A stretch of 64,000 bases of DNA, taken from the NCBI GenBank assembly GCA_025999275.1, contig AP024680.1, positions 684,522-748,521 on the forward strand, given 5' to 3'. The notes below the pieces were generated by a model that did no database searches, was not told the DNA's origin, and saw only the letters and a program-made list of their open reading frames with translations. Both the position numbers and the translations under genes were made by a program. Position 1 is the first letter of the stretch. Every line of letters starts with the position of its first letter. Shown here one piece after another: positions 14,825 to 64,000 of this stretch. The stretch comes from Patescibacteria group bacterium. Lineage in GTDB: Bacteria > Patescibacteriota > Microgenomatia > UBA8517.

Positions 14825-15136
14825 GCTATTTTTGGGCGGTGGATGGGTTGTGCGTTGCCTTTGGCGACGCACAAGTCAGTCAAGATTTTGTTCAAAAAAA
14901 GGTTCGTGCTTCGTTCAGTAATTGCGACCAATTTCTTACCAAAGAAAAGGAATTAAATTCCCAAGATCAGAAGTAATTAATCCTTTTTTTTTAACTTTCA
15001 CTTCGAATCACAAAATTTAAAAATTAATAATTTTACCCTCTTCTATATAGCCTCTCAAAATATTTTATTATCTCTCTTGCAGCATTAATCCCCGTTATAC
15101 TTCTCTAAACCTTCAAATTGAGGTGAAGGATTGACT

Positions 15137-19081: not shown

Positions 19082-19589
19082 AATTGTTTGTATTATACCT
19101 CAAATCAAACAAATAATCATTTAGTTAGATATGAATTATGAATATGGGTATGGGGTATGGGAAATATAATTCAAAATTCCTACCTAACGGCAGGCAGGCA
19201 AAGTTACCAGCCCTAGGCTGTTTGGTCTTGGGCCAAAAAATTAAAAGTTATAAAAATAATTTCTAAATTCTAATATCTAACTTCTAAACAAATTCTAGTT
19301 TTTCAATTTCACCAAATCACAAACAAACAATAATTTGTTTTTTTAAAGATAAATAATTAAATATTGCTTAGGATTTACAAATTAGGATTTAGGATTTCTA
19401 ATAAATATTTCATAAAAACCTTTGACTTTTGAATTTTAACCTTTGAATTATTTTTATTCATAATTCTTATAATTCTTAAATCTTAAATTATAAATCTTAA
19501 ATCTATATTCCTTTTCATTACCACAAGTTTATTTGGGATCTAAAGATCAACGGTCGAAGGATAGTAAAACTCTGATTTCTATATAGCAG

Positions 19590-23924: not shown

Positions 23925-23934
23925 AGTAACTGGT

Positions 23935-23963
23935 ATTATAGGATATTTATCAAATCCAATCAA
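23935..23963 (-). promoter_or_regulatory. TTGATT-17-TATAAT promoter, 10 nt upstream of the GTG start (near-leaderless)
   Basis: Minus-strand read: ttgatt ggatttgataaatatcc tataat accagttact GTG. The same arrangement occurs at 34057-34085 and 35407-35435 for the paralogs. Confidence 0.5.
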
Positions 23964-24001
23964 GAGGATGCAAAAGTTTTTTATAATAAATAATAAAGCC
24001 T

Positions 24002-30370: not shown

Positions 30371-30471
30371 TTTTAAATTATAAACACAAAAAATATATAA
30401 GGCAAGAAAAACTAAATATTTAATTTAGTAATTTTAAATTAACTTTAGATATCAAACACTTAAACCAAAAA

Positions 30472-34046: not shown

Positions 34047-34343
34047 AGTAACTGGTATTATAGGCTACTTATTATATTGGGTCAAATAGGTGTAAAATTA
34101 TACAAAATTTAACCAATTATTTTAAATTTGGCATAAAATTGCAAAATTTAAGGAAAGGATTAAATGAAATTATAAGAGAAATAATACTTTACTTTTTAAT
34201 ATTTGGAATACACAAAGTTTTTGACTATGATAAAAGTAAATTCTTGAATCAAAAACAAGTGGTATACAAAATCAATATGATAAATTAAGAAATCTTAAAA
34301 ATCATTTTTAATTTACAAAAACAAGACAATTGTCAATAAATTA

Positions 34344-35396
34344 CTAAGGTTTTGGTTGAGAATCTGAAGTAAAAGACTGCAACTCCAATGCACTTAAACC
34401 TATATAATCAATTAAAGACTCAAGGTCTTTTCCTGAAACACCAACTAAGAAAGCTACGTCTAAATCAGAAGGAAGAAATTCTCCTTCTCCCCCTCTCAAC
34501 CAGTAACTACCATTGGGATAATAAATACGTACAAACTTATAAGGGTACACAGGGTTTAGATTGTTTTCTGACACACCGTGAGACATAAGAAGAATAAATT
34601 TCCCCACCTTCTCTCCATGAAAAGAAACAGTAAATGAAGATCCAATTATCAAATCTAATGGTGGATGATTAACAAAGTTTTCAGGACCCAATCTACCATC
34701 TTTAACAAAAGAATCTAAGTTGGATTTTTTCGTAAGAAAATTATTATTAAAATCAAGAGAATCTTTGAAAAAAAGTGGGGTATGACTTTTATTAACCCCA
34801 TATTCGATAAGTTTTATTAGAGCCTCAATTGTCGCTTGTTTTTTCTCATCATCACTAGCATCATCTTGTAGATAAACCATAAAAGCAGGACCTTCTAGTC
34901 TTTCCAAAGTTCCATCACCTCTACGAAAAACCATTTCTAAAACCCCACCCTCCCAAGGTCTTTTAAATTCATTGCCATCATATACATACCATGCCCATTT
35001 TTCTTTGGTGTCATCACGATAGATAATTAGTTCAGGATTTATGGCACTGATACTACCCTTCTTGAAGGTTCGTCCATCTTCTGCAGTGTAAGTTTCAGGA
35101 GCTAGTCGAAAACGCTCTTCAGGAGTAATTGAATGCCAATCTACAGGAGTTGGGGTTTCTGTTGGTGTAGGAGTTGGTGTTTCTGTAGGTTTAGCTGTTG
35201 GTGTAGGTGTTTCTGTAGGTGTAGGAGTATTGTTAGGTTTAGGTGTTTCAGTAGAAATAGGATCACCTGTTTCAGCTGTTGAAGAAATTGATTCTAATGA
35301 TTTATCAAGACCACAGGAAGCAGCACCCAAAGCAAGAAGTCCTAATCCCGCTTTTTTCAAGAATTCTCTTCTACTAATTTTCCTTTCTGTACTCAC
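34344..35396 (-). CDS. Tat-signal lipoprotein paralog C (C-terminal domain homologous to but diverged from B)
   Basis: First 469 bp including the promoter are identical to B (33595-34062 vs 34945-35412). The C-terminal halves share GEK(L/V)G(N/K)FIL...NPVYP...AFLVG(M/V)SG(E/K)DL(Y/E)SL. Confidence 0.55.
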   Translation of the reverse strand: MSTERKISRREFLKKAGLGLLALGAASCGLDKSLESISSTAETGDPISTETPKPNNTPTPTETPTPTAKPTETPTPTPTETPTPVDWHSITPEERFRLAPETYTAEDGRTFKKGSISAINPELIIYRDDTKEKWAWYVYDGNEFKRPWEGGVLEMVFRRGDGTLERLEGPAFMVYLQDDASDDEKKQATIEALIKLIEYGVNKSHTPLFFKDSLDFNNNFLTKKSNLDSFVKDGRLGPENFVNHPPLDLIIGSSFTVSFHGEKVGKFILLMSHGVSENNLNPVYPYKFVRIYYPNGSYWLRGGEGEFLPSDLDVAFLVGVSGKDLESLIDYIGLSALELQSFTSDSQPKP

Positions 35397-35509
35397 AGTA
35401 ACTGGTATTATAAGATATTTATTATACTAGGTCAAGTAAAAATAAGACAAATAAACCCATACCCGCTTAAAATTACAAATACACAGGGTCAAAAGACAAC
35501 TTGAAAAGA

Positions 35510-35760
35510 CACCTTGAGGGTGTACTAGCTTGGCACCTAACTGATTAACTCAAAAGTCAAAAGGCAAAACTCAAAATTACAATTCAAAATTTAAAAATAT
35601 TTAATTAAATTTAATTAAGGAAAACTTTTGACTTTTAACTTGTAGTTTTGACTTTTGAATTTTAACTTTTGAATTATTTTTATTCATAAATTATAAATCT
35701 TAAACCTATATTCCTTTCCCCTTCCTATCAGCACTGGCTACTGTTTTTAAAGTTTAGATA
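35510..35760. repeat. Partial copy of the MITE-like element family (internal AT-rich hairpin part)
   Basis: caccttgagggtgtactagcttggcacctaactgattaactcaaaagtcaaaaggcaaaactcaaaa...tttgacttttgaattttaac is near-identical to 52225-52400. Confidence 0.45.
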
Positions 35761-35791: not shown

Positions 35792-36022
35792 CTATTCCTG
35801 ATTACTTTGAATTCCAAGAAGCCAAAGAACCGCTTCTTTTTTGTAGCGGCGGTCACCACGAGAGTTGATACGAATTGCAGGAAGCTTGCCCCTTTTGCCC
35901 CAGCGTTTGATAGTCAAAGGAGAAACCCTAAGAAGATCAGCCACCTCACGAACTGTTAGAAGATCAGGTAAATCCTCAAGCTTTATTTTTTTCTTTTTCC
36001 TTGGCGCTTTATCTTCAGGCAT
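35792..36022 (-). CDS. Excisionase-family (Xis/MerR-like) helix-turn-helix DNA-binding protein
   Basis: LLTVREVADLLRVSPLTIKRWGKRGKLPAIRINSRGDRRYKKEAV fits the excisionase-family HTH pattern. 76 aa. Confidence 0.55.
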   Translation of the reverse strand: MPEDKAPRKKKKIKLEDLPDLLTVREVADLLRVSPLTIKRWGKRGKLPAIRINSRGDRRYKKEAVLWLLGIQSNQE

Positions 36023-38510: not shown

Positions 38511-38616
38511 ATATTTTGATATAAAAAATAAGTATTTTGATATAAATCAACTAAAGAAAACTAACAAACATTGTAGAAAAAAAAGAAGACAACTACAAGA
38601 AGAAAATGGTAAAAAG

Positions 38617-38772
38617 ACATCGGACATCGGACATCAGCTATCAGTCATCAGTCATCAGATATCAGATATCAGAGATCAGTTATCGGTCAGAGCTGGTCGG
38701 AGTTGGTCAGAGTTAGTCCCAGCCTACGGCGGGGTTAGTCGGAGTTAGTCGAAATTAGTCAAAGTTGGTACT
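38617..38772. repeat. Member of the dispersed ATCAGY-microsatellite / gtcggagttagtc repeat family
   Basis: gacatcggacatcagctatcagtcatcagtcatcagatatcag...ggtcggagttggtcagagttagtccc...ggcggggttagtcggagttagtc resembles the reverse complement of the 52440-52600 interior of the MITE-like element. Confidence 0.5.
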
Positions 38773-39781: not shown

Positions 39782-40279
39782 CTATTCCTCTACTTCATCT
39801 CTTGAATAAATAAGGCACTCTGAAGCGCTGATGTAATCAAAAATCTCATCGTCTGAGAATATTAGTGTTTTTTCCTTCTGGGCCGCCTCAGCTGAATCTG
39901 AAGCATGAATAAGATTCTGGCTTCCACTCATACCAAAATCACCCCTGATTGAACCTGCCTCAGCTTCCCTACCCTTGGTTGTACCAACAATCTTTCTTAC
40001 CGTTGCTATAGCATCTAAGCCCTCCCAAACCATAGCCACAATTGGAGTCCACTCCATAAAATTCTTTAAGGTTGGAAAAAAGGACTTGTCTTTATGGTGA
40101 GCGTACCACTCGTCAATTATCTCATCTGTAAGTTTAAGCATCTTAATTCCAACAAGCTTTAAACCTTTTCTATCAAAGCGATGAATAATTTCCCCCGTTA
40201 AGCCGCGCTGAAGAGCATCCGGCTTAATTAAGACTACTGTTTGTTCCATTTTAGACATAATATTCAAGTCAAAAGTCAA
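39782..40279 (-). CDS. ndk: Nucleoside diphosphate kinase
   Basis: EQTVVLIKPDALQRGLTGEIIHRFDRKGLKLV, NLIHASDS. The true start is probably MEQT (40249) within the ORF-track extent. Confidence 0.85.
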   Translation of the reverse strand: MTFDLNIMSKMEQTVVLIKPDALQRGLTGEIIHRFDRKGLKLVGIKMLKLTDEIIDEWYAHHKDKSFFPTLKNFMEWTPIVAMVWEGLDAIATVRKIVGTTKGREAEAGSIRGDFGMSGSQNLIHASDSAEAAQKEKTLIFSDDEIFDYISASECLIYSRDEVEE

Positions 40280-40414
40280 AAGTTAAAAGTTAAAATTCAA
40301 AAGTCAAAATCACAAATAAATTATCAAACATTAAAGTAAAATGGTCAAGGGCAAATTAAAATTGCTTATAATACATTGGCTTTTGAAACCTAAAAATAAT
40401 ATAATAAGTTCACA

Positions 40415-41635: not shown

Positions 41636-41805
41636 TAACAAATAACAAGGGGGAAACGAATTGGAATTAGAATTTATGAATCAAGGAGTATAAATTTATG
41701 GGTAAATAATTCAAAATTTAGAATTCATAATTCATTTTCCCTCACTACTTTCTACATTCTACTTTCTACCATCTTCGCCTTCCCATACCCCTTAATTCAT
41801 AATTC

Positions 41806-43074: not shown

Positions 43075-43134
43075 TGACAAGGTCCGTCTTTGTCAAAAAC
43101 CAAGGCGAGAAACTGACAAGGACGGACCTTGTCA
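43075..43134. repeat. REP doublet (REPIN-like): tgacaaggtccgtctttgtca ...18 nt... tgacaaggacggaccttgtca
   Basis: Each unit is an 8-bp stem (tgacaagg/ccttgtca) with a 5-nt loop. The two units are in opposite orientation at 43075-43095 and 43114-43134. Confidence 0.7.
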
Positions 43135-46949: not shown

Positions 46950-47190
46950 ATTGAGGTAATGGTCAATGATCAATGATCGATGGTTGATGTAACTGGACAC
47001 CTTAACTGGACACCTTCAATATGTACCAGCTTAACACCTGGAACAATAGACAAGCTGATGACCGATGGCTGATGACCGGTAGCTGATGACCGATGGCTGA
47101 TGACCGGTAGCTGATGACCGATGGCTGATGCCTGATACTGATAGCTAATGTCTGACAGCCGACAGCCGATAGCTGACATCCTTTTACTCC
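46950..47190. repeat. Tandem and direct repeat block (28-bp unit gctgatgaccgatggctgatgaccggta x ~2.7; aactggacacctt x2) of the ATCAGY family
   Basis: The tandem array is read at 47054-47130. It is flanked by ggtcaatgatcaatgatcgatggttgatg and gacagccgacagccgatagctgacatcc. Confidence 0.6.
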
Positions 47191-50507: not shown

Positions 50508-50567
50508 TGACAAGGTCCGTCTCTGTCAATTTACCAACTCGATTTTTGACAAGGACGGACCTTGTCA
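50508..50567. repeat. REP doublet: tgacaaggtccgtctctgtca ...18 nt... tgacaaggacggaccttgtca
   Basis: Units at 50508-50528 and 50547-50567. The spacer atttaccaactcgatttt resembles the spacer of the 58117-58176 doublet. Confidence 0.7.
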
Positions 50568-50636
50568 GGTAAACACTTTCAGGTAAACACTTTAAACACT
50601 TTGCAGAAAAGAAGAAAAATGTTATAAACTAAGACA

Positions 50637-51359
50637 ATGTCCGAAAACACCGAAAGAAGAATAATTCAAACACTGCTTATACTCCTGGCTGTAAGTATTT
50701 CTTTTATCTTGGGTAAGGGCATACCCCAATTTACACTCCAAGTCATTGCCTTTCTTATTGCCTGCTATATAGCCTCCCATTTTCTCTCGCGCAAAATAAA
50801 GTTTATAAGAAACAACAAGACAATTATTGATTTTTTGCTTATCACCCTTGCTGTTTACACAATAATATTTTCAACCGGTGATCTCTTCTCACCGGCATTT
50901 TTCCTAATTCACTTTCTACTCTTTGGAGTTACTCTCCTTTTCGAGCCATTTTCAGCCTTACTACTTGCTACCATATCAACTGTTTTTTTCCTTCTTACCC
51001 CCCAAAAAGGCTTCTGGCTTGAAGCAATTCAACTTGGATCGATATTTTTAATTTCCCCTCTAGCCTTAATCTTTGGCAACCAATATTTAAAACTTCAGGA
51101 AAAAGAAACTGAAATAGAAATACTTAAAAAAGAAGAAAAGATTTTAGCCTCGGAAGTTGTCTCTCAAGAAAAAGCTGTTCGGGAATGGGCATTTGGAGAA
51201 TTTCGAAATCAACTTATTAAAATCTGGGAAAACTTGGAAAAAATCTCAAGAAGAGAAAACTTAACAAAAGGAAGTCAACAAAAATTAACTGAAATTTCAA
51301 ACCAACTTTCAAACTTGTTAAAAAGTGCGCAAACACTTGAGAGAAAGATATCAAAATAG
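50637..51359 (+). CDS. Hypothetical polytopic membrane protein with C-terminal coiled-coil-like tail
   Basis: 240 aa with 4-5 hydrophobic helices. Confidence 0.5.
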   Translation: MSENTERRIIQTLLILLAVSISFILGKGIPQFTLQVIAFLIACYIASHFLSRKIKFIRNNKTIIDFLLITLAVYTIIFSTGDLFSPAFFLIHFLLFGVTLLFEPFSALLLATISTVFFLLTPQKGFWLEAIQLGSIFLISPLALIFGNQYLKLQEKETEIEILKKEEKILASEVVSQEKAVREWAFGEFRNQLIKIWENLEKISRRENLTKGSQQKLTEISNQLSNLLKSAQTLERKISK

Positions 51360-51384
51360 TTCAATATATAAACTTCCGTAAAAT

Positions 51385-52146
51385 ATGGACAGAAAACTTT
51401 TAATTACCACATTCATATTTGCAACCATTGCTTCATTTATACTGCCAAAAAAAGTCTTCTCACAAGCCAAAGTAACATCACCAAACTATCAAATTCAACT
51501 TCCAGGATTCAACGCAGGTGCAGGAGTGCCTAAATCAACTAATTTCTGGACACGAGGCACCCTTGGTCAAACTGCTCCCGGCCTTTTTAGTTCGGCTAAT
51601 TATAGAGTTAGATCAGGCTTCCAATACATAAGCACAATAATTCCCTTTTCTTTCTCCATCTCAAATATATCTGTTAATTTTGGTGAATTAACACCAAATA
51701 CACCTGTAACAAGAACAGCAACTTTAACAGTAAAGGCAGGGGGTGCAGGCGGTTATACTGTCAAAGCGCAGGAAATGCATCCACTTCAGACTGTTGGAGG
51801 AGGTTCGACCATTAAAAATGTAACCTGCGATAGCGGAAGCTGTACCCGAACCTCTGCCGGACTTTGGACACTAAATTCAACCGATGGATTTGGATTTAAT
51901 ATGTCAGGAGATGATGTACCTGTTGATTTTATAAACTCAAACTATTTCAGACCTTTTGCTGACGCTTCTCTTGGCGAAGAACCGGCAATTATTATGGCTA
52001 AAAATCAAGTAACCTGGAATTATCCAAATAACACCTGGCCGTGGGAAAGCCAAGCTGTTATCACTTACAAAGTTAACATTCTAGGAACACAGGCAGCCGG
52101 AACTTATAACACGATCATTAAATTCACTGCAATACCATCACTCTAA
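51385..52146 (+). CDS. Secreted protein sharing a C-terminal domain with 53735-55285 (WxL-like, inference)
   Basis: Signal peptide. ...LTVKAGGAGGYTVKAQE...GLWTLNS...YNTIIKFTAIPSL aligns with LTVSTNAVSGYKVYIEE...YYNIVKYTAVPTF of the larger protein. Confidence 0.45.
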   Translation: MDRKLLITTFIFATIASFILPKKVFSQAKVTSPNYQIQLPGFNAGAGVPKSTNFWTRGTLGQTAPGLFSSANYRVRSGFQYISTIIPFSFSISNISVNFGELTPNTPVTRTATLTVKAGGAGGYTVKAQEMHPLQTVGGGSTIKNVTCDSGSCTRTSAGLWTLNSTDGFGFNMSGDDVPVDFINSNYFRPFADASLGEEPAIIMAKNQVTWNYPNNTWPWESQAVITYKVNILGTQAAGTYNTIIKFTAIPSL

Positions 52147-52167
52147 ATAAATAGGTAAAAGGCAAGA

Positions 52168-52711
52168 GATAAAGGGTAAAAGGCTATCAGCCATCAGCTA
52201 TCAGCCATCAGCCAAAGGACACCTTAAGGGTGTACTAGGTTGGCACCTAACTGATTAACTCAAAAGTCAAAAGGCAAAACTCAAAAGTACAATTCAAAAT
52301 TTAAAATTATTTAATTATGCAATTAAACCTTTGACTTTTAACTTGCAATTTTGACTTTTGAATTTTAATTTTTGAATTATTTTATTCTTAATTCTTAAAT
52401 CGTGAATCTTAATTCTTTTTTACCCTTACTACTTACTGCTTTCTACTTACTATTATCTTCCAGCTCTGACTAACTTAGACTAACTCCGACCAACCCCGCC
52501 GCAGGCGGGGCCAACTTTGACTAATCCCGCCGCAGGCGGGGACTAACTCCGACCAACTCCGACCATCATCTGACAAATGATAGCTGATGACTGGTAGCCG
52601 TTTCGTCAGGTGTCAACCTATTTTGAAAGAAGGTGCCAACCTAGTACACCCTTAAGGTGTCCTTTGGCTGATGGCTGATAGCTGATGGCTGATAGCCTTT
52701 TACCTTTTATA
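52168..52711. mobile_element. MITE-like non-coding element with ~80-bp terminal inverted repeats
   Basis: Left end ggctatcagccatcagctatcagccatcagccaaaggacaccttaagggtgtactaggttggcacc (52182-52247) is the exact reverse complement of 52632-52697. Inversion symmetry extends ~15 bp further (ggtaaaag / cttttacc). The interior has AT-rich long hairpins and cccgccgcaggcgggg GC-rich repeats. No ORF. Confidence 0.55.
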
Positions 52712-52734
52712 TATTTCTAGCTATACTTAAACCA

Positions 52735-53700
52735 ATGAAAAAGAAAATTGTTATCACAATCCTTTCATTATTATTAATCAACTTTTACACTAATACGGGC
52801 TTAGCTCAAAATGTATCCTTGTCTATCTCCCCTCCTATACTTGAGGCCGTTATTAAACCCGGCGAAGTGGTTGAACAAGCCTACACTCTACAAAATTCAG
52901 GCAATGAAACCACGGCCTCAATTCAAATCTATCAATTTGAACAAGCCGATGAATTTGGCAATGCAAAAATAGAAAGAAGTCTAGAAGAATACGATCCACT
53001 AAACTTAAAAGAATGGTTCAAAATAAAAGAGCCTCAAATTTCAATCGGAGACAAATTCACACTTGGTCAAGGTGAACAAAAAACTATCCGTCTTGTAATT
53101 AATCCACCGGATAATGCTCCCGATGGAGATTACTATTTCACCCTAATATTTAAAACCAGCTTGGAAAATTCTTTCATTAACACAAACACCAAAACTGCCC
53201 TATCACAAGCAGAAATTGGATCAAACATATTGATAACTATATCAAAAGAAGGCTTAGTAAACCGAAAGGCAAAAATCAAAGAATTCAAAGCACCAAAAGT
53301 TATTGATTCATTCAAACATTTAAATTATGAATTGCAAATTGCCAATATTGGCGAAGGTTTTTTCAAACCGTTTGGCAAAATTACCATCGAATCAATTCTA
53401 GGCAAAAAATATATTCTAAATATAGCTCCGCAAAACATCATTAGTGCTTCATCAAGAAAGATATCTTGTATTGAAAACGAAAGGCTTATTCCCTGTCAAA
53501 TCCCTGCCAAATTCTTAATCGGCCCATATAAAGCAACTCTTTCATTCCAGATAGAAGGAGATAAAAAAGATTATAAAGAAACAGTTACTAGTTTTGGAGT
53601 TCCTTTTGTAATCTTGTCAATAATAATTATTTCTGCTCTGGTTATTATCCTAATCTATCGGAAAAAACTATTGACAAACAGAAAGGATATGCTAGCCTAA
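52735..53700 (+). CDS. Secreted protein with C-terminal TM anchor and short basic tail (DUF916/DUF3324-like architecture, inference)
   Basis: Signal peptide, beta-rich body, C-terminus FGVPFVILSIIIISALVIILIYRKKLL. Confidence 0.45.
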   Translation: MKKKIVITILSLLLINFYTNTGLAQNVSLSISPPILEAVIKPGEVVEQAYTLQNSGNETTASIQIYQFEQADEFGNAKIERSLEEYDPLNLKEWFKIKEPQISIGDKFTLGQGEQKTIRLVINPPDNAPDGDYYFTLIFKTSLENSFINTNTKTALSQAEIGSNILITISKEGLVNRKAKIKEFKAPKVIDSFKHLNYELQIANIGEGFFKPFGKITIESILGKKYILNIAPQNIISASSRKISCIENERLIPCQIPAKFLIGPYKATLSFQIEGDKKDYKETVTSFGVPFVILSIIIISALVIILIYRKKLLTNRKDMLA

Positions 53701-53734
53701 AAATAGGGGTAATATAAATTACCATTAAGAAATT

Positions 53735-55285
53735 ATGAAAACTTCTTTAAAGTTTATTATTTTTGTTTTTGCTTTTTTTGTTTCAATTTTTGCTTTTGCT
53801 TTCTATCTTTTTAAACCAACAAAAGTCAAGTCTGCAAACTTTACCAATGTTACAGCCTCTCTTTCAAACTCCAGATTTTCATTCTACGCAGGATACTCTG
53901 CAGGCTCTATTGGCCAATCAAGAATTACAATTGACACCTCAGGAAATCCAGATAAAGACGTTGATAACCTTTTTGTAGGAGATTATATTTGTATTGCTCC
54001 AAGCAATTTTGTTGGATGTAGAGATAACACAACCTATGGTGTTGTAACAACAGAAGGGACGAATGGAGATGAATTTACCATTAGCCCCGCTCTTATCTCA
54101 ACACCAGATGCTAATGATCTAATAATTGCCACATCATCAGGAATCTTGACTGTCCAATTTACTCTTACCAACAATGTTCCAGATGGTGGGGATATATTAA
54201 TTACAATTCCAAGTGATGATGACACAACCTCCACCACCAGTACTGACGGTTTTCCTGATGCTGCAGCGACAACATCCGTTGGGGGATTTGATTTAAATGG
54301 CATCACTTCAACTCATGTCTCAACATCAACATCCTCCTCTGGATCTTGTAATAACTCCCATTGGTCGGCAACGGAAACAATAACACCAGGAAATGGCACC
54401 ACCGATCACACAATTAGAATCGACAGAAGCGGATCTGAATGTCAAGCAAACAATACCGTAATTACTGTTACCATTGGAACAACAAGCAAAGGTATAGTTG
54501 TTCCTCCTCCAACAACCAATGCCAGAACTCAAGGAGTAGCCGATATCTACTCTATCAACATCAAAACTCGCGACAACACCGATAACACAATTGACCAATC
54601 AAATGCCTTGGTTGCACCAGTTGAGGGAGTTTTTGTATCAGCCACTGTCCGCGAGACTCTTTCTTTCCAAGTGGCAGGAGACACTAGCGGAGCCTCAAGA
54701 TGCGGACAAACAACCGATGTTACCACCACCGCTACATCTGTTCCTTGGGGTGAGATATCAACCACAGGAACATTCTTCGAAGCAAGTCAAATACTAACAG
54801 TGTCTACTAATGCCGTCTCAGGTTACAAAGTATATATTGAAGAAAACGATCAAATGGGTAAGGATGGTAACACTTGTACTGGAACAGTGCCCTCATCAGG
54901 ACAATTTACTTTTGGTAGCGGAATTTGTATTAGAGACACGGTTTGTAATGCAACCACTTGCTCTGAATCAGTAGGTTACAATTGGACAAATGCTTCAACC
55001 TATCCTGGATTGGGCATTTCCCTCCAAAATCTAAGTGGAACAGATGCTGCATGGGTTTACAATTCAAACGATCCGTGTAGTACTACAGCAGGTACGGGCT
55101 CATTCTGTGCCAAGCAAATTGCAGATACGACAGAAGGAGGAGAAACAAGAAGCTATGTGATGACTAATTCTGGTCCTGTTGATTCAAGTCAGGTTTATCT
55201 TTGTTTCAGACTATCAATTCCTGGTACACAACCCGCAGGATTTTACTATAATATAGTTAAGTATACAGCTGTTCCAACATTCTAA
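53735..55285 (+). CDS. Large Thr/Ser-rich secreted protein with WxL-like C-terminal domain (inference)
   Basis: 516 aa. Signal/TM N-terminus. C-terminal ~220 aa homologous to 51385-52146. Confidence 0.45.
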   Translation: MKTSLKFIIFVFAFFVSIFAFAFYLFKPTKVKSANFTNVTASLSNSRFSFYAGYSAGSIGQSRITIDTSGNPDKDVDNLFVGDYICIAPSNFVGCRDNTTYGVVTTEGTNGDEFTISPALISTPDANDLIIATSSGILTVQFTLTNNVPDGGDILITIPSDDDTTSTTSTDGFPDAAATTSVGGFDLNGITSTHVSTSTSSSGSCNNSHWSATETITPGNGTTDHTIRIDRSGSECQANNTVITVTIGTTSKGIVVPPPTTNARTQGVADIYSINIKTRDNTDNTIDQSNALVAPVEGVFVSATVRETLSFQVAGDTSGASRCGQTTDVTTTATSVPWGEISTTGTFFEASQILTVSTNAVSGYKVYIEENDQMGKDGNTCTGTVPSSGQFTFGSGICIRDTVCNATTCSESVGYNWTNASTYPGLGISLQNLSGTDAAWVYNSNDPCSTTAGTGSFCAKQIADTTEGGETRSYVMTNSGPVDSSQVYLCFRLSIPGTQPAGFYYNIVKYTAVPTF

Positions 55286-55288
55286 TAA

Positions 55289-56308
55289 ATGAAAAAGTCT
55301 GCCAAAATAATTTCTATCATCGCAATTAGCCTTTTTGTTTCTTTGTCAGTCAAAGGCGCAGAGGCTCAAACCATCTTACCCCTAACCGTCTCCCCTGCCC
55401 GACAAACTATAAATATTGACCCAGGTACAACAGAAAAAACAACAATCAGCTTCTTTAATCAAGCAGACATACCTGTTGCTGGCAATCTAAAAGTGGTTGA
55501 TTTCATTGTTACTGACAACACCGGCACACCCTATCTTCTTGAAGGTGAAACTGCCATTCCAACTAAATACTCAGCTGCCAAATGGATTAGTATCCAAGCT
55601 GACAAAGCAATCATCCCTGCAAACGCATCATTTAAGGTACAATTGACAATCACCGCCCCCAAAGATGCAGCTGCCGGTGGAAGATATGCAGCAGTTTATT
55701 TTGAACCTACTGGAACTTTGCCAAACACCAGAGCCTTTATTAACCAAAAAGAAGGTCAACAATCAGTAACCTCAAGACTAGTAGGATTAATTAATATCAG
55801 AGTAAATGGACCAATAATTGAAGAGGCGGCAGTTAAATATCTTTCAGTTCCCAATTTTATTGAATACGGCCCAGTTGAAGTAAAAACAGAAATATACAAC
55901 AACGGAAGCTACCACATTACTCCAAAAGGTAAAATTACTCTCATCGACTGGCAAGGAAAAGTTGTTGATGAATACACACTTGAAGAAAGAAATATATTCC
56001 CGGAAAGATCAAGAATTTATGAAACAGAGCTCGGAAAAAGACTAATGATTGGAAAATACAAGGTTGAGCTTTTGGCAATGTATGGAGACTCAAATCAAAT
56101 ACTCTCAGCCAGCCAAGTTTTTTGGGCTTTCCCTTGGAGAATAACAGTAGCTATCGTATTAGCAGTTATTATAGCCATACTTCTTATCATCCTAATTACC
56201 AAGAAGATGCAAAAGAGGCAAAAAGAACTTGAGGAAAAGCTTGAAAAGGAAATCGATGAAATTGAAAAACTGAAGGAGAAATTCAAAGACTCCTCCTCTT
56301 CCAAATAA
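55289..56308 (+). CDS. Secreted protein with C-terminal TM anchor + charged coiled tail (paralogous architecture to 52735-53700)
   Basis: Signal peptide. ...WAFPWRITVAIVLAVIIAILLIILITKKMQKRQKELEEK. Confidence 0.45.
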   Translation: MKKSAKIISIIAISLFVSLSVKGAEAQTILPLTVSPARQTINIDPGTTEKTTISFFNQADIPVAGNLKVVDFIVTDNTGTPYLLEGETAIPTKYSAAKWISIQADKAIIPANASFKVQLTITAPKDAAAGGRYAAVYFEPTGTLPNTRAFINQKEGQQSVTSRLVGLINIRVNGPIIEEAAVKYLSVPNFIEYGPVEVKTEIYNNGSYHITPKGKITLIDWQGKVVDEYTLEERNIFPERSRIYETELGKRLMIGKYKVELLAMYGDSNQILSASQVFWAFPWRITVAIVLAVIIAILLIILITKKMQKRQKELEEKLEKEIDEIEKLKEKFKDSSSSK

Positions 56309-56318
56309 ATCCTTCTTC

Positions 56319-56406
56319 TGACAAGGTCCGTCCTTGTCAGTAAAATTAGCCTTGACAAAACTACTCGTTCTATCAATAATGAATTTGACAAAGACGGACC
56401 TTGTCA
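56319..56406. repeat. REP doublet immediately upstream of the RAYT gene
   Basis: tgacaaggtccgtccttgtca (56319-56339) and tgacaaagacggaccttgtca (56386-56406) in opposite orientation with a 46-nt spacer. Confidence 0.7.
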
Positions 56407-56414
56407 AAAAGGCT

Positions 56415-57113
56415 ATGCCCGCAAAAAACAGCTTAAAAGTGTTTGCAGAAAATACCTACTATCATATCTACAACCGTGGTGTTGAAAAGAGAAATATATT
56501 TATAGATAACCAAGACTACGAGGTTTTCTTAAATCTACTAAAGTATTATTTATCCGAAAATAACCAAGCAATTTACCACCCCATTGAAATAATTGCACCA
56601 GATAACAGGCCCCTAAGGCCAAGACCTCTTAAAAATCTAAACAAAGAAATTGAACTAATAGCCTACTGCCTTATGCCCAATCATTTTCACCTACTAATAA
56701 AGCAGATCTCAAAAGATGGAATGACAAAGCTAATGAGAGCATTATCTACCAGCTATGCCCTTTATTTTAACCGTCGCTACAAGCGCGAAGGAACCCTTTT
56801 CCAAGGAAGATACAAAGCAGTTATTATTAAAAATGACTCATACCTTCTTCATCTCTCGCGATATATTCATCTTAACCCCTCAAGCATATTGACAAGGACG
56901 GACATTGTCACTTGGCCCTATTCAAGCTACTCATACTTTCTTGGAACAAAAAAGGCTGACTGGGTAAAACCGCAAATTGTCTTAGATTTCTTTAAAAGGC
57001 CTGAAAATTCCCCTATCCCGCTAGAAAAATTTCAAACCTACCAGCAATTCGTTGAGGCTGGCAAGGAAAATCCTAAGGAAAATATAGAAAAACTAATACT
57101 CGAAGATGAATAA
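56415..57113 (+). CDS. REP-associated tyrosine transposase (IS200/IS605-like HUH enzyme, RAYT type)
   Basis: TYYHIYNRGVEKRNIF (Y-H-x-x-NRG), LIAYCLMPNHFHLLI (HuH motif), FQGRYKAV and YIHLNP (catalytic Tyr region). Start taken at ATG 56415 after the REP doublet. Confidence 0.75.
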   Translation: MPAKNSLKVFAENTYYHIYNRGVEKRNIFIDNQDYEVFLNLLKYYLSENNQAIYHPIEIIAPDNRPLRPRPLKNLNKEIELIAYCLMPNHFHLLIKQISKDGMTKLMRALSTSYALYFNRRYKREGTLFQGRYKAVIIKNDSYLLHLSRYIHLNPSSILTRTDIVTWPYSSYSYFLGTKKADWVKPQIVLDFFKRPENSPIPLEKFQTYQQFVEAGKENPKENIEKLILEDE

Positions 57114-58110
57114 GCCACAATTATCACCTGACAAGGTCCGTCTTTGTCAGATCAGTATAACTACAATCATTTTGTTTTTAATACCTAATAACACCATCAG
57201 AGCTCAAACAGCAACTCCGGTAACTAGTGATACTACTGTATCTGTCACTTTCAAAGTAGTCGAGGGAGAAACTCCAACCCCAACTGCCACTACTACCCCC
57301 ACCCCCATAACCAGTGGAACACCCACTCCTACAATTTCTCCCCAACCACAAATATCCCCAACACCCACACCAGAAGCCACCAAAGCCCCTCAAATCAATC
57401 TAAAGATATTCGGTTATGGCCCGCCTGATATACCAGTATCCTTAGTGGGAAAAAACATCTTAGAATTAACCACATCAAACGAGATTGGTTATTTCGAGTT
57501 TAGGAACATTCCCCTGCCAGAAATAAAAGGATTATTTAAACTATATCCTGAGCTTTGCCTGCAAGGTTACTATAAAGAGAGCTCAACACAGCCAGTTTGC
57601 CTACCAAGGCTGCCGGTAGGCAATCTCGAATACAATATCGGCCCTGTCATCCTTTCCCCAATTATAATAATTGAAAAAGGAGAAATCGCCTCAGGTGAAC
57701 AAGTAAAAGCAACCGGTAAAACCACACCCAATTCAGAAGTTTCAATTTACCTAGCCAAAGAAAAACAAAAAACATTCTTTAATTTTTTTGAAGAAATAAA
57801 ACTCATAAAGACTGCCTCAGCTTACTATCTCCCAAAGTATCAAACAACATCAAATGCCAACGGAGACTTCGAATTTAACCTACCTAGCGAATCACCGGCA
57901 AAATGGCGTCTTTTTTCCGCAGCTTCCTTCCAAGGCCAAAACTCTCCCAAGAGCAACACTCTTTCCTATCTAGTTGTCCCAAAAACATTTGAATTCTTTA
58001 AGAATATAATCGGTTTTCTTATTTCATTCTTCTCTCACTGGTTTTCAATTCTTATCGCAATTGAAATTGTATCTATCATCATTCTTCTATACTTTACCAG
58101 CAAAGATTGA
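57106..58110 (+). CDS. Hypothetical secreted Thr/Pro-rich protein with C-terminal TM
   Basis: 334-aa ORF. The stated N-terminus (MNKPQLSPDKVRLCQ) is encoded by a REP hairpin, so the real start is probably downstream at the signal peptide ISITTIILFLIPNN. Confidence 0.45.
   Translation: MNKPQLSPDKVRLCQISITTIILFLIPNNTIRAQTATPVTSDTTVSVTFKVVEGETPTPTATTTPTPITSGTPTPTISPQPQISPTPTPEATKAPQINLKIFGYGPPDIPVSLVGKNILELTTSNEIGYFEFRNIPLPEIKGLFKLYPELCLQGYYKESSTQPVCLPRLPVGNLEYNIGPVILSPIIIIEKGEIASGEQVKATGKTTPNSEVSIYLAKEKQKTFFNFFEEIKLIKTASAYYLPKYQTTSNANGDFEFNLPSESPAKWRLFSAASFQGQNSPKSNTLSYLVVPKTFEFFKNIIGFLISFFSHWFSILIAIEIVSIIILLYFTSKD
57129..57149. repeat. Single REP unit tgacaaggtccgtctttgtca just after the RAYT stop
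   Basis: Same 8-bp stem / 5-nt loop hairpin. Confidence 0.65.
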
Positions 58111-58116: not shown

Positions 58117-58176
58117 TGACAAGGTCCGTCCTTGTCAATTTACCGCTTTGATTTATGACAAAGACGGACCTTGTCA
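58117..58176. repeat. REP doublet: tgacaaggtccgtccttgtca ...18 nt... tgacaaagacggaccttgtca
   Basis: Units at 58117-58137 and 58156-58176. Spacer atttaccgctttgattta. Confidence 0.7.
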
Positions 58177-59276: not shown

Positions 59277-62200
59277 ATGATAGACCGCATAACACAACTT
59301 TTTCTGCAGTACTTAAAATCCTGTAATGTTTCGGAAAAAACTCTTCGATACTACAAATCTGATATTGCCATGTTTTCAGCCTGGCTAATATTTCAGGCAA
59401 AATCAATTGGAGCTGATTGCAACAATCTCCAAGAAGCTTTACCCTTCATTAACAAAAAAACAGCCAAGGAGTATAGAGACTTCCTTATCAAAAATGGCAA
59501 CTCAATTCAAACCATCAATCGCCGGCTTTCAACCTTAAGAACATTTTCAAAATTTCTCTTTGAAAACGAGCTGCTCTCTTTTAACTTCGCTAAAAAAATA
59601 AAAAACATTTCAAGATCTGTTTTCATTCCCCCACTCTCACAAGCAATAAACCAATTCTCCTCATACCTGGAATCACAAAAAGTATCTGCCCTAACCAGAA
59701 AAAATTATCTTGCAGATATTAATCAATTTTCCAGATGGGTAGAAAAAACTGGCAAAAAAGAAGTTAAGGAAATAACATCAAAAGATATAAAAAGATATCT
59801 AATCATAGAATTGTCAAATGCTCCTGAGGCTACAAAAGATAGAAAAATTTCTTCACTAAAGAAATTCTTTACCTGGGCAGTTCAGGAAAGTAAAACAAAT
59901 ACAAATCCAGTTGAAGAATATCTAAAAGACACTGCTTACTTAAAGCCAATAGAAAAATCCATTTCTGAGCTTACAGAACCTAGTATTAACCGCAAAGTTT
60001 TCGGTAATTATCCTTCCTATGAGAGCTTGAAAGAGAAAATTAACGCATATATTGCGGATAAACCCAAGTTACAGAAGCTAGTCTACCATCTTCTCTATAC
60101 CAGACCTAAGTGGTACAAAGCTTATCATTCCCTTGCAATCAGTCGTTATATTAACTTTGCCATTCTTACCATTTTTGCTGCCGGGCTTGGATTCGGAATT
60201 TATCAACAACTTTTTGCCAAACCTCAAACACCTATTGCCTATCCCACTCAACCAGTTGCACCAAAAAGATATCTTTCCTTTCAAGGTCGTCTGACAAACC
60301 AATACAATACCCCCATTACTACTGCCACAAATATTATCTTTAAACTTTATGATGCTTCAACTGGTGGCAATGTCCTTTGGAATTCTGCTGGTGTTTCCTG
60401 CTCTATCACCCCTGACCAAGACGGAATCTTTTCAATTCTCCTTGGAACTCAATCGGGTGACGGCTATACCTGTACTGGCATTTCCGGCATTGACGCCTCT
60501 GTATTTAGTGAAAACGCTGAGGTCTGGCTAGGAATAAAAGTTGGTTCTGATCCTGAAGCTACCCCCAGAATTCAAATTGCTACCGTTGCCTATGCTTTAA
60601 ATGCTGAAACACTTCAAGGCTATCCCATCAACGCGACAGGTTCTGCTACTGTCAATACAGTTTTAACTATGAATTCAGGTGGCGAGGTTGTTTTGGCAGA
60701 AGTAGGACCAAAGATAAAATCTGTTTCCGGTAATTTTGGAATCCAAGGTGAAGCAATTACAATTCAAGCAAACGGAGGTGGAATCCCCGGCGATATTACC
60801 CTTTCCCCTTCCTCAAATGGAACTGTATCCATTTTGGCAAGCGGTACAACAAATGATTCTTTATATATCCAAAACGCTCAAATAACATCAGGAGCATTGA
60901 TCCACGGATATTATGGCGGAACAGCAACTAATGTTGATCTTCTAAAACTTGGCGCAGGTCCAAGTGAATCAACAAAATTCCTAGTTGAATCATCTGGTGA
61001 TACATTTATCGCCTCAGGTGCCGACTTGTTCATCGGAGGGATAGGGCTAAATGATAACAGCTCTACATCCTCAGGTGCTTCACTAATCGGTGTCTTTGAT
61101 GATTCAATGACATATATATCAGGTAATACCAATGTTCAATCTGCTATTAAGCAATTAGATACTGCCATTGGTAGCCTTTCAGGATCAGCTAGTGGATGGA
61201 CTGATGATGGAGTCATAGTAAGACTTACTACTTCATCTGATAGAGTTGGTATTGGAACAACCATTCCCAACTCAGCCAATAAACTAGCAGTTTTAGGTGG
61301 TGTGGGAATAGGATCAACAGCATATACAGAAGCTGCTGGAGCCCCAACTAATGGGATGATTGTTGAAGGAAATGTGGGAATTGGTACTACTGCCCCTCTT
61401 GCTACTCTTGATGTTGCTGGAAATATTCTTGTTAACAATGGTGGAACAATCGATACAAGATCAGCTGGAACACTAACTATTGGTGGAACAATACAAACAG
61501 GATTGACACTAGGAAGAAGTGGAGCAACTACCACCATAGCAGGATCTTCTGTTAATGTAGCCAATTTAACAACAGATGGAGTTGTATATACCTCAGGTGG
61601 TAATGGAACACTGAATTCTGAAGCTCTTCTTGCCATATCAAGAGGTGGAACAAATTCAAATGCTACTCCAACAGCAGGAGCAGTAGCATATGGTACAGGA
61701 ACTGCATATGCCTTCAATACTGCCGGCACTTCAGGACAACCTCTACTTTCAGGAGGAACAGGAGCACCTACATTTGGAACATTGGGACTAACATATGGTG
61801 GGACAAATGCTGACCTTTCAGGTGTAGCAACAGGAGGATTAATATATAAAGGAGCTTCTGCTTTAGCTGGTACATCTGCACTAACAGGTATTCTTCAGGG
61901 TAATGGATCATCAGCTCCATCTGCCATTACTGGTACTGTCAATTACATACCAAAATGGAGTTCATCTGCCCCCTACCTTACTGCAACATCACTAATATAT
62001 GATGATGGAACAAATGTAGGTATTGGAACAACTGTTCCTACAAAAGGAAAACTTAATGTATTAGGTTCTGTTGCCATTGGATCAACTGCATACACAGAGA
62101 CTAGTGGTGCTGCACCAACAAATGGAATGATTGTTGAGGGGAATGTGGGAATTGGGACAACAGCTCCAGCATATAAGCTTGATGTTAGTGGTGATATTTA

Positions 62201-64000
62201 TTCATCAGGAAATATAAGAGCTAATACTGATTTATACATTGCGGGAACTGCCTTGTCTGCCAATACTTCAACAACATCAGGTGCATCAAAGGTTGGTCTA
62301 TATGATGATTCAATGACATATATATCAGGTAATACCAATGTTCAATCTGCTATTAAACAACTTGATACTGCAATAGGTAGCCTTTCAGGATCAGCTGGTG
62401 GATGGACTGATGATGGAACAATTGTAAGACTTACTACTTCAACTGATAGAGTTGGTATTGGTACAACATCTGTTAATGCAAATACAAAGCTTGGTGTTCT
62501 TGGAGGTGTTGCCATTGGAAGCCAGACCTACTCTGATGCTCAAGCTCCTACTAATGGAATGATTGTTGAGGGTAATGTGGGAATTGGAACTACCAACCCA
62601 TCCACTTTCAAACTTGAAATAGCCGGCTCAGTCGGCCCATCAGCTGATAACACATACAATCTTGGTTCTTCATCAAGAAGATGGGCAAACATCTACGGAA
62701 CCAATATCTACGGCAATATAACTCCCTCTGGTTTTACCCAAGGATCTGTAATCTTTGCTGGCACTGGAGGAGTTCTTTCTCAAAACAACTCTCAATTCTA
62801 TTGGGACAATGCTAATTACAGGCTAGGAATTGGAACAACAACCCCATCTGTTTCCATTGATTCAACTGGAAGTTTAAGACTTACAGCTGGAACTTTCCAA
62901 ATTGGCAACGCTGCAAATGCAGCTTACAATAGAATTGGCACTTCAGCTACCAACCGTGGACTTTCCGCTGCAAACGATCTCTTGATCAATGGTAAACTCG
63001 AAGTCGACCAAGCCCTATTCCCTGATTCAGGTATTTACGGTTCAGCTGGAACACTGGTTGTTAACTTTCCTAACAACGACGCCTGGTTCTCAGATGAAGT
63101 TTGGGTTGATGGAAAAATTGGTATTGGCACAACATCACCTGTTTCAAAATTCCATGTCAGATGGTCCAACACTAATTGCGGCAGCCAATGTTTCACAGAT
63201 GCGGCAGTCTTTGAAAATAACGGTAATGTATTTCTTCAATTAATGGGTAGTAATTCTGGCGAAAAATCTGTTAATTTTGGATCACCAACAAACGGTGCCG
63301 CAGGCGCCATAAAATTTAACTACCACAATTTGAATGAATTAAGCTTTTGGACTGGAGGCAATGTTGAACAAATGGTAATTAGAGAAAATGGGAAAGTCGG
63401 CATCGGGACGACGGCGCCGGGGATGAAATTAGACGTCTCTGGAGATATAAGAGCAAGTGGAGAAACAATTGGAACTATCGGGAGTGGATACGGCCAATTT
63501 AGAGCAATATCTGGCAACTATGGCTTTATGCTTAGAAATGATGGGTCAAATACCTATTTTCTTCTTACTGCTTCTGGTAATCAATATGGTAGCTGGAATA
63601 GTTTAAGACCATTCCGTATAGCTAATGCCACTGGCGATGTGGCCCTTGGAAATGATACCTTGTATGTAGTTCACGGCGGCAACGTCGGCATCGGGACGAT
63701 AAGTCCACTACGCAAACTTGAAGTAAACAATGCAATGAAATTTACAAATAATTCTGCCGATACCAATGATGGTGTAATCGGCACCGCGCCTTTTCTTGCT
63801 GGACTTAATATCGTTGGTATTAACACTGATGGTGGCGGTCGCAAAATAAACTATTGGGGTTCACTTATTCAGAATGAGAACCCCGTTGGGAATACCTTTA
63901 TTGGTAATACATTTTTCCCTGGCTCTGGGGTTTGGAATTCAGCCGGCAACGTCGGCATCGGGACGACAAATCCGGGTTATAGATTAGTAGTAAGTCAAAC
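59277..64000 (+). CDS. Giant (>1570 aa, 3' end beyond window) glycine-rich repeat protein: two integrase-SAM-like N-terminal domains + TM + GNVGIGTTxP-type repeats
   Basis: Frame 0 is open from ATG 59277 to the window end. It is absent from the ORF track only because it has no in-window stop. The N-terminal ~270 aa contain two copies of a pattern like the tyrosine-recombinase N-terminal SAM/core-binding domain (SEKTLRYYKSDIAMFSAWL...IQTINRRLSTLRTFSKFL; LTRKNYLADINQFSRWV...RKISSLKKFFTWA). A TM helix FAILTIFAAGLGFGIY follows. Then >1200 aa carry recurring GMIVEGNVGIGTTAP..KLDV.G and SMTYISGNTNVQSAIKQLDTAIGSLSGSA blocks. Confidence 0.75.
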   Translation, partial: MIDRITQLFLQYLKSCNVSEKTLRYYKSDIAMFSAWLIFQAKSIGADCNNLQEALPFINKKTAKEYRDFLIKNGNSIQTINRRLSTLRTFSKFLFENELLSFNFAKKIKNISRSVFIPPLSQAINQFSSYLESQKVSALTRKNYLADINQFSRWVEKTGKKEVKEITSKDIKRYLIIELSNAPEATKDRKISSLKKFFTWAVQESKTNTNPVEEYLKDTAYLKPIEKSISELTEPSINRKVFGNYPSYESLKEKINAYIADKPKLQKLVYHLLYTRPKWYKAYHSLAISRYINFAILTIFAAGLGFGIYQQLFAKPQTPIAYPTQPVAPKRYLSFQGRLTNQYNTPITTATNIIFKLYDASTGGNVLWNSAGVSCSITPDQDGIFSILLGTQSGDGYTCTGISGIDASVFSENAEVWLGIKVGSDPEATPRIQIATVAYALNAETLQGYPINATGSATVNTVLTMNSGGEVVLAEVGPKIKSVSGNFGIQGEAITIQANGGGIPGDITLSPSSNGTVSILASGTTNDSLYIQNAQITSGALIHGYYGGTATNVDLLKLGAGPSESTKFLVESSGDTFIASGADLFIGGIGLNDNSSTSSGASLIGVFDDSMTYISGNTNVQSAIKQLDTAIGSLSGSASGWTDDGVIVRLTTSSDRVGIGTTIPNSANKLAVLGGVGIGSTAYTEAAGAPTNGMIVEGNVGIGTTAPLATLDVAGNILVNNGGTIDTRSAGTLTIGGTIQTGLTLGRSGATTTIAGSSVNVANLTTDGVVYTSGGNGTLNSEALLAISRGGTNSNATPTAGAVAYGTGTAYAFNTAGTSGQPLLSGGTGAPTFGTLGLTYGGTNADLSGVATGGLIYKGASALAGTSALTGILQGNGSSAPSAITGTVNYIPKWSSSAPYLTATSLIYDDGTNVGIGTTVPTKGKLNVLGSVAIGSTAYTETSGAAPTNGMIVEGNVGIGTTAPAYKLDVSGDIYSSGNIRANTDLYIAGTALSANTSTTSGASKVGLYDDSMTYISGNTNVQSAIKQLDTAIGSLSGSAGGWTDDGTIVRLTTSTDRVGIGTTSVNANTKLGVLGGVAIGSQTYSDAQAPTNGMIVEGNVGIGTTNPSTFKLEIAGSVGPSADNTYNLGSSSRRWANIYGTNIYGNITPSGFTQGSVIFAGTGGVLSQNNSQFYWDNANYRLGIGTTTPSVSIDSTGSLRLTAGTFQIGNAANAAYNRIGTSATNRGLSAANDLLINGKLEVDQALFPDSGIYGSAGTLVVNFPNNDAWFSDEVWVDGKIGIGTTSPVSKFHVRWSNTNCGSQCFTDAAVFENNGNVFLQLMGSNSGEKSVNFGSPTNGAAGAIKFNYHNLNELSFWTGGNVEQMVIRENGKVGIGTTAPGMKLDVSGDIRASGETIGTIGSGYGQFRAISGNYGFMLRNDGSNTYFLLTASGNQYGSWNSLRPFRIANATGDVALGNDTLYVVHGGNVGIGTISPLRKLEVNNAMKFTNNSADTNDGVIGTAPFLAGLNIVGINTDGGGRKINYWGSLIQNENPVGNTFIGNTFFPGSGVWNSAGNVGIGTTNPGYRLVVSQ

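Follow-up and report, generated by a model that had tools for sequence, protein, structure and literature searches.

We describe here a non-coding element of nested repeats in a window of 64,000 nucleotides (contig AP024680.1, positions 684,522 to 748,521 of the forward strand), in whose numbering the coordinates below are given. The host belongs to the Patescibacteria, or candidate phyla radiation (CPR), its leucyl-tRNA synthetase (LeuRS) being 100% identical to a protein from a metagenome-assembled genome of that group; the next relatives by LeuRS are at most 77% identical, the named ones being Woesebacteria and Levybacteria. The element, a nested stack of repeats occupying 52147-52715 (569 bp), lies inside a CPR Pam pilus-like operon (50637-56308) encoding a PamT-like protein of 253 aa, proteins of 321 and 339 aa and a 516-aa pilin-like protein, a gene set that matches the pam operon of a 2026 preprint (10.64898/2026.03.03.709456). 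The 253-aa protein upstream of the element matches NCBIfam NF058579 (E 1.4e-14) and NF058581, models for the CPR pilus protein PamT and the Pam pilin C-domain, both below cut-off; the family matches in the operon are all below the curated cut-offs, including a weak WxLIP_PGBD match in the 339-aa protein, which like the 321-aa protein has a C-terminal membrane helix. No family match was obtained for the 321-aa protein encoded immediately downstream of the element, and we regard it as putatively Pam chaperone-like from its layout, a signal peptide followed by a C-terminal membrane helix being the arrangement of the Pam chaperones in the same preprint. More pilin-like and chaperone-like genes follow. 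From left to right the locus comprises:

51385 to 52146, forward strand: upstream gene, 253 aa, PamT-like CPR pilus (tip pilin) protein.
52147 to 52163, forward strand: left spacer flank, following the TAA stop codon at 52144-52146, with an outer extra copy of GGTAAAAGGC at 52154-52163 (from the sequence and its inverted and direct repeats).
52164 to 52248, forward strand: left arm, made up of an 'AAAAGG module' to 52183, (GCTATCA GCCATCA)x2 at 52183-52213 and a 35-nt core at 52214-52248, with GRCACCT at 52218 and 52242.
52249 to 52259, forward strand: linker AACTGATTAAC, which includes TAACTGA and is common to the copy at 35.5 kb (alignment).
52257 to 52378, no strand assigned: imperfect, AT-rich hairpin of (GTCAAAA-like)n and (TTTTGAC-like)n about a central TTAATT (inverted pairs, fold); the block TTGCAATTTTGACTTTTGAATTTTAA of its 3' arm belongs to a family widespread in metagenomes.
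52381 to 52455, forward strand: heptamer arrays, ATTCTTA at 52384-52417 and CTTACTA at 52425-52452 (Tandem Repeats Finder, TRF); the ATTCTTA block is colinear with the copies at 35.7 kb and 19.45 kb (alignment).
52456 to 52567, forward strand: decamers GACTAACTCC / GACCAACTCC in an array that contains two GC hairpins, CCCCGCCGCAGGCGGGG at 52494-52510 and CCCGCCGCAGGCGGGG at 52526-52541 (sequence); its sole other copy is at 38694-38768, inverted.
52568 to 52603, reverse strand: vestige of an older right terminus, a short array of GCTGATG type with AGCCGTTT at its end; 52578-52603 is 88% identical to the present terminus at 52676-52701.
52604 to 52630, reverse strand: partial second core TAGGTTGACACCTGAC, with GACACCT at 52608-52614, in tandem with the core of the right arm (alignment).
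52631 to 52715, reverse strand: right arm, consisting of core, GCTGATRG array and CCTTTTACC.
52699 to 52727, forward strand: promoter-like TTTACC-17-TATACT, a consensus match only, lying across the right arm's outer end and shortly before the ATG at 52735.
52735 to 53700, forward strand: downstream gene, 321 aa, signal peptide and C-terminal membrane helix.

The interior contains no open reading frame (ORF) longer than 33 aa, and in this, as in the AT-rich hairpin and the short internal repeats (heptamer arrays and the two GC hairpins), the preliminary description of the element is borne out. Seven-nucleotide tandem units of several families are confined to intergenic DNA (TRF); periods of 7 and 14 are the only ones among those from 4 to 15 that pass a strict filter in the window, and none does so in shuffled sequence. 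The GRCACCT direct repeats of the core are spaced by 24, 23 or 13 nt.

The two arms form an inverted repeat of 85 nt with 96% identity, 382 nt apart (repeat search and blastn), so that the unit measures 552 bp from arm end to arm end. They had been described earlier as perfect over about 80 bp, with 52182-52247 the exact reverse complement of 52632-52697. Base-by-base comparison confirms the latter statement, and the long inverted repeat stands; its perfection does not extend quite so far, since the only three mismatches, at 52166, 52168 and 52174, leave a mismatch-free stretch of 74 nt (52175-52248 against 52631-52704), longer than the 66 nt of that exact match. Chance is excluded as the origin of the repeat by the core pattern, which occurs four times in the window and not once in 100 shuffles, and by the predicted fold of a 601-nt stretch (-251 kcal/mol, z-score -21.7). 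Some long-read and amplification-based libraries are known to yield spurious inverted duplications, and a false foldback or chimeric join could in principle produce such arms. A separate short-read assembly of sample DRR290133, however, carries both outer gene-to-arm junctions: contig L001 contains the left gene and the outer left arm and stops at window position 52204, while contig L002 begins at 52675 and contains the outer right arm and the right gene. Each of these ends lies exactly one 31-mer past the first arm mismatch, where a perfect inverted repeat is expected to break an assembly graph if, as we assume for DRR290133, k is 31, and the three outer arm differences are each confirmed in their own contig. 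We have therefore rejected an assembly artefact, the probability of which we place barely above nil. As the ends of these two contigs illustrate, the repeats break short-read assemblies at operon spacers, and therefore affect the contiguity of metagenome-assembled genomes and the reconstruction of operons.

At least seven related fragments lie in the window, with four copies of the core. The five partial copies named in the preliminary description all exist, and two further ones were found at 41665-41790 and 10306-10340. The five are:

35491 to 35745, forward strand: partial copy with GGGTCAAAAGAC, a 13-nt tandem duplication, a core at 35504-35538, the same linker as the element at 52 kb, the hairpin and TCTTAAA-type arrays.
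38597 to 38768, reverse strand: right-end-type copy with GGTAAAAAG, 10 ATCAGNN-type heptamers and decamers with a GC hairpin; no core.
46990 to 47190, forward strand: diverged core copy with a 13-nt tandem duplication (TAACTGGACACCT x2), GACACCT...AACACCT, (GCTGATGACCGATG)n and CCTTTTAC.
19399 to 19514, forward strand: partial copy, hairpin 3' arm and TCTTAAA-type arrays.
40266 to 40335, forward strand: GTCAAAA / GTTAAAA heptamer array of the type in the 5' arm of the hairpin module.

The copy at 35.5 kb, which has neither the ATCAGCY array nor a right arm, is colinear with the element at 52 kb over 214 nt (35504-35717, 86% identity), and its core differs from those of the arms at 2 of 31 positions, while the cores of the two arms are identical to each other. 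In the copy at 47 kb the core is oriented, relative to the GCTGATG array, opposite to that in the right arm. The order of the composite, ATTCTTA/TCTTAAA then CTTACTA/TTTCTAC then the 'AAAAGG module' GGTAAAAGG, recurs at 35.5 kb, 19.4 kb and 41.7 kb, and modules of the family turn up in unrelated spacers, facing either way with respect to the genes. No second copy with two arms is present in the 64-kb window. Adjoining the copy at 35.5 kb is an orphan gene (35792-36022, reverse strand) for a 76-aa MerR/HTH_17 (excisionase-type) DNA-binding protein, with no integrase nearby.

The same spacers were compared in related loci:

pam spacer, L132 (syntenic; LeuRS 67%): 23 bp, with no heptamer array in 22 kb.
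pam spacer, L003 (LeuRS 77%): 383 bp, with CAACAGY heptamers, two repetitive extragenic palindromes (REPs), and GTCAAAA and TCTTAAA arrays; no core.
pam spacer, window: 588 bp, the element.
comEA-flanking spacers, L134: 44 and 37 bp.
comEA-flanking spacers, window: 69 and 191 bp.
comEA-flanking spacers, L003: 349 and 236 bp.

The site is thus empty in L132 and differently filled in the closer relative L003, and because the orthologous spacer measures 23 bp in the one and 383 bp with other repeats in the other, the content of the pam spacer appears to be inserted material in a gap that was once very short. The comEA-flanking spacers point the same way. The right arm stops where homology to the sequence preceding the ATG in L003 (TTCTA...) starts, and by eye the window and L003 can be aligned over the final ~23 nt before the ATG. 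L003 also has the 13-mer TAAAAGGCAAGAG found at the element's left end, and the order of modules is the same in L003 and L009. L003 further contains, flanking comEA, a 140-nt inverted pair (12640-12779 and 13551-13690, 97% identity) composed of the heptamer composite. Its boundaries lie inside arrays rather than at defined ends, and it may be viewed as a parallel case to the arms at 52 kb.

Beyond these relatives the modules of the element differ greatly in their distribution. The pattern of the hairpin 3' block, TTGNANTTTTGACTTTTRAMTTTTRA, has at least 120 metagenome matches, on at least 120 contigs, and in 81 of 124 instances among the matches listed the TTTTGAC block is the 3' arm of a hairpin with an upstream partner. 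A (GTCAAAA)n-loop-(TTTTGAC)n hairpin of ~100 nt is found in many low-GC metagenome contigs (L012-L131), sometimes in every spacer of a row of genes; in contig L096 it occupies three consecutive spacers of ~100 nt (1-110, 895-1010 and 1497-1595). These hairpins often adjoin GC palindromes of the CCGCCAGCTGGCGG type (22 loci among the matches listed). The TTTTGAC-array block is also matched on L084 (JAESGS010000057.1), which has 10 highly iterated palindrome (HIP1) sites (GCGATCGC) in 11.6 kb and is presumably cyanobacterial; the same heptamer array would therefore occur in very distant phyla. We considered whether the TTTTGAC block might be an oriented promoter or 5'-UTR element and rejected the idea, its orientation to flanking genes being unbiased (24 against 19 co-directional cases, from crude ORF calling in which 49 cases scored as inside an ORF are probably over-extensions of ORFs through arrays). 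Nor is a fixed module order among CPR bacteria in general supported: the other modules are rare near the 132 listed metagenome instances, and the order is found only in the window genome, L003 and L009. Three modules, namely the ATCAGCY arrays of the arms, the 35-nt GRCACCT core and the decamers with GC hairpins, are private, having no relative in 739 kb of related loci. The core pattern GACACCTTNNNNNTGTACNAGNTTNNCACCT gave 0 matches in GTDB species representatives, JGI metagenomes and IMG/VR, and the whole element has no blastn match in plasmids or phages. In the searchable literature we found no description of the TTTTGAC hairpin block, nor any paper linking transposable elements of the miniature inverted-repeat type (MITEs) or heptamer arrays with Patescibacteria, or containing tandem GTCAAAA/TTTTGAC strings.

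With rather more belief than doubt, we take the inverted repeat to have arisen recently, by inverted duplication or by conversion of the element's left end inside an older composite repeat. The tips of insertion sequence (IS) elements and MITEs are normally their best conserved part. Here the inner 74 nt of the arms contain no mismatch and the outer 11 nt contain three, a distribution with a chance of C(11,3)/C(85,3) = 165/98,770 = 0.0017 if mismatches were spread uniformly, and the slippage-prone array has the same number of units in both arms. The confinement of mismatches to the outer ends, the equal copy number of the arrays and the identity of the two arm cores, when that at 35.5 kb differs at 2 of 31 positions, all argue for recent duplication rather than for conserved tips, as do the vestigial terminus and partial core inside the right arm, the presence at 38.6 kb of the same type of end without a core, and the different orientation of the core at 47 kb. 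It therefore seems that the 85-nt inverted repeat is not a tip pair maintained by a transposase.

The arrangement that we propose has three layers. The first would be the AT-rich hairpin, ~120 nt of GTCAAAA/TTTTGAC heptamers whose 3' block is so widespread in metagenome contigs, and the second the heptamer arrays in fixed order, restricted to this organism and its nearest relatives; together these would constitute a dispersed composite some 150-270 nt long, present at least four times in the 64 kb. The third would be the genome-private modules, that is, the ATCAGCY arrays capped by GGTAAAAGG, the 35-nt GRCACCT core and the decamers with their GC hairpins. This stack would have filled the once very short intercistronic gap of the Pam-pilus-like operon, the older composite already ending in an inverted GGTAAAAGG with ATCAGCY/GCTGATG arrays, before a very recent event copied 74 nt of the left end (array and core) and placed them, inverted, next to the earlier right terminus. 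This copying probably took place by template switching or gene conversion between the quasi-palindromic arrays. The repeat family probably spreads by means of a trans-acting enzyme, and the arrays probably lengthen and shorten by replication slippage.

The preliminary description called the element MITE-like, and the likeness is real in several respects. It is small (552 bp, slightly above the usual), non-coding, AT-rich and intergenic, with a very stable fold and long inverted termini, related fragments are dispersed in the window, and the orthologous site in L132 is empty; in addition, each arm has GRCACCT direct repeats reminiscent of the several subterminal sites at which some transposons are bound, and a TA may flank each end. 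A true non-autonomous transposon, a long terminal inverted repeat or foldback-type MITE of ~552 bp that arrived in one event and was mobilised in trans by a GRCACCT-binding transposase, would be in keeping with these features. The likeness fails in that neither plausible pair of ends has a clear target-site duplication (at 52163/52716 the flanks GGTAAAAGGC | TCTAGCTATA share no direct repeat), that the 64 kb contain no second two-armed copy, and that neither a DDE transposase nor a recombinase was detected by Pfam and NCBIfam among the approximately 57 ORFs of the window, in which the sole transposase-like gene is a Y1 gene, similar to REP-associated tyrosine transposases (RAYTs), with an unrelated REP of its own. 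The mismatches, moreover, occur only at the arms' outer tips, the right arm has a vestigial terminus on its inner side, and other copies have the core in either orientation or not at all. MITEs are usually shorter than 500 bp with inverted repeats of ~4-30 bp, and their direct repeats may decay with age (PMC10969869). Since the target-site duplication is missing and the arms are about three times the usual length, we do not classify the unit of 552 bp among the MITEs, and we consider its arrival as a single transposon unlikely, if still worth keeping in view. A nested mosaic with a recently duplicated end is more likely than one discrete transposon, because there is no target-site duplication, no second two-armed copy and no transposase in the window, and because of the mismatched tips, the vestigial terminus and the different filling of L003. 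For the constituent layers, 'MITE-like dispersed family' is a fair description.

Several points weigh against the recent duplication of one end. The search for copies covered 64 kb of a 786-kb genome, and two-armed copies elsewhere would favour a MITE. TA dinucleotides at 52170-71 and 52708-09 flank AAAGGGT...ACCTTTT, a possible Tc1/IS630-type duplication that looks no different from a slightly longer inverted repeat. A single insertion would explain the empty site in L132 no less well than stepwise accretion, we infer the template-switch or conversion step from anatomy only, and a mobilising enzyme was found for none of the layers.

The position of the element between co-directional genes of one operon raises the question of its effect upon them. 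If transcription passes through the spacer, an 85-bp RNA duplex would arise from the arms and should uncouple the genes downstream from that for the tip pilin; such a duplex would be a plausible target of RNase III or a roadblock. Lying between pilus genes, it is a candidate for transcript processing or for DNA inversion. A selected cis-regulatory RNA or DNA structure, serving as processing site, terminator or insulator between the tip-pilin and chaperone/pilin genes, would be in keeping with this location, with the great stability of the predicted fold given above and with the long spacer that L003 also has at the position. Against this, the only Rfam matches in the window at gathering thresholds are 5 tRNAs and the spacer has no match even at E<=1, it contains no terminator-like site, neither its sequence nor its structure is kept in L003 and only 23 bp are present in L132, and unrelated spacers contain the same modules, in both orientations. 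Such a structure is in our opinion very unlikely; in view of the lack of an Rfam match, of conservation in relatives and of a terminator-like site, nothing suggests a conserved function of the spacer.

The arms could alternatively make the element an invertible switch, in which the 382-bp interior is turned round by recombination between them, homologous or site-specific at GRCACCT, so that the Pam genes downstream are expressed differently (phase variation). Inverted repeats of this length are substrates of RecA-dependent inversion; those of the described invertons are much shorter. The perfect 74-nt repeats enclose promoter-like sites on both strands (consensus scan) and lie in a surface-pilus operon, as might be expected of a switch, but promoter-like matches are to be expected in AT-rich DNA (7 were found against 2.2 expected, by consensus scan only), no recombinase gene is nearby, and the arrangement is kept in neither L003 nor L132. 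We give phase variation by inversion a very slim chance indeed. Equally little credence would go to the wider proposal in which the arms, with their GRCACCT repeats, are recombination sites of an invertible 382-bp cassette that switches the Pam chaperone/pilin genes and is built from undescribed heptamer-hairpin mobile repeats, perhaps widespread in CPR bacteria and sharing a 7-nt syntax with the short tandemly repeated repetitive sequences (STRRs) of cyanobacteria.

Elsewhere in the window there are duplications among large genes that have no Pfam match and contain repeats of Thr/Pro-rich linkers. The segment 24715-25014 equals 30471-30770 (100% over at least 300 nt), and in the same group of genes 33524-33823 pairs with 34874-35173, and 23685-23975 with 33807-34097 and 35157-35447, at 85-92%; the duplications among these large genes are recent. 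A very long ORF (59277-64000, forward strand) runs beyond the end of the window and has, by eye, two N-terminal regions resembling integrase SAM/core-binding domains, a membrane segment and GNVGIGTT-type repeats like those of tail fibres, with no catalytic recombinase domain in the part read. At 14700-14880 a GC-rich, palindrome-rich stretch lies inside an 807-bp region without long ORFs, with no Rfam match at E<=1, and beside tRNA-Trp there are inverted clusters of the DnaA-box-like ATCCACA / TGTGGAT (4098-4151 and 3054-3091).

CPR genomes are very small and tightly packed, and yet hundreds of bp of fast-evolving repeats have been added inside the operon of a newly described pilus where a relative has 23 bp. 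Among known repeats, prokaryotic MITEs such as Nezha of Anabaena/Nostoc, Correia, RUP and ERIC are likewise short, non-coding, AT-rich and intergenic, with inverted termini, a stable stem-loop, a dispersed family and an empty site in a relative (PMC10969869, PMC3184786). The element at 52 kb differs from them not only in its longer arms and total length, and in lacking a direct-repeat duplication and any parent IS found with matching ends, but also in that conservation within the arms is lowest at the tips, the arms consist largely of microsatellite and the whole is a nested mosaic. A MITE of Porphyromonas gingivalis with an internal minisatellite (PMC4596501) shares with it the presence of tandem repeats inside a small inverted-repeat element; in our case the arrays are part of the inverted termini, and several families of them are stacked.

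Like a REPIN, in which paired REPs form a hairpin and which is associated with a RAYT (Bertels & Rainey 2011, PMC3116915), the element is an inverted pair forming a hairpin, and the genome does contain a system of the REP/RAYT type. The arms of the element, however, are unrelated to the host REP and without TGACAAGG...CCTTGTCA, four times longer and 382 nt apart, and no second RAYT is present in the window. The host REP palindrome, TGACAAGGTCCGTCCTTGTCA, has about 10 copies there, some as inverted doublets 39 nt apart, and flanks the Y1 transposase gene (REP/Y1 region 56312-57150; other copies at 2529-2549, 43075-43134, 50508-50567 and 58117-58176); three of the doublets are REPIN-like, with 16-18 nt between two REPs. 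The Y1 gene itself (56379-57113) encodes HFH and YIHLNP motifs and matches NF047646 (REP-associated tyrosine transposase) weakly, with a score of 49 bits where the cut-off is 80. At 50565-50602 a tandem duplication of 14 nt, perfect in sequence (TCAGGTAAACACTT x2, followed by TAAACACTT x2), abuts a REP doublet. The same palindrome occurs in L003, L009, L134 and Ca. Woesebacteria Ch104a (CP055308.1); four 8-kb loci with REP in the last contain no arrays, and lend no support to the idea that heptamer arrays are a general trait of REP carriers.

The closest resemblance in the arrays themselves is to heptamer repeats. STRRs were reportedly described from heterocystous cyanobacteria by Mazel and colleagues in 1990. 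With them and with other heptameric simple sequence repeats the present arrays share an intergenic location, a dominant 7-nt period and the occurrence of many unit types together. The units here are presumably for the most part other than those of the canonical STRR1-3. The host, moreover, is a CPR bacterium of ~0.8 Mb and no heterocystous cyanobacterium, the arrays form hairpins and dispersed composite units of fixed order, and the TTTTGAC block shows no preference for the region just before start codons. Mrazek et al. 2007 reported long simple sequence repeats in which 7-nt units predominate, as summarised in PMC4679880, and TAACTGA repeats are known from Beggiatoaceae, Cyanobacteria and Bacteroidetes (PMC4679880); near units here are the TAGCTGA and TGGCTGA arrays, with TAACTGA itself in the linker, and the (TTTTGAC)n block is present on the HIP1-rich contig L084. 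The differences from known kinds are the CPR host, the combination of a hairpin with arrays in fixed order, and arms consisting mostly of microsatellite together with a cluster of GRCACCT repeats. The hairpin and its layered relatives may represent an unrecognised class of small repeats in the CPR radiation, with a 7-nt syntax like that of the cyanobacterial STRRs.

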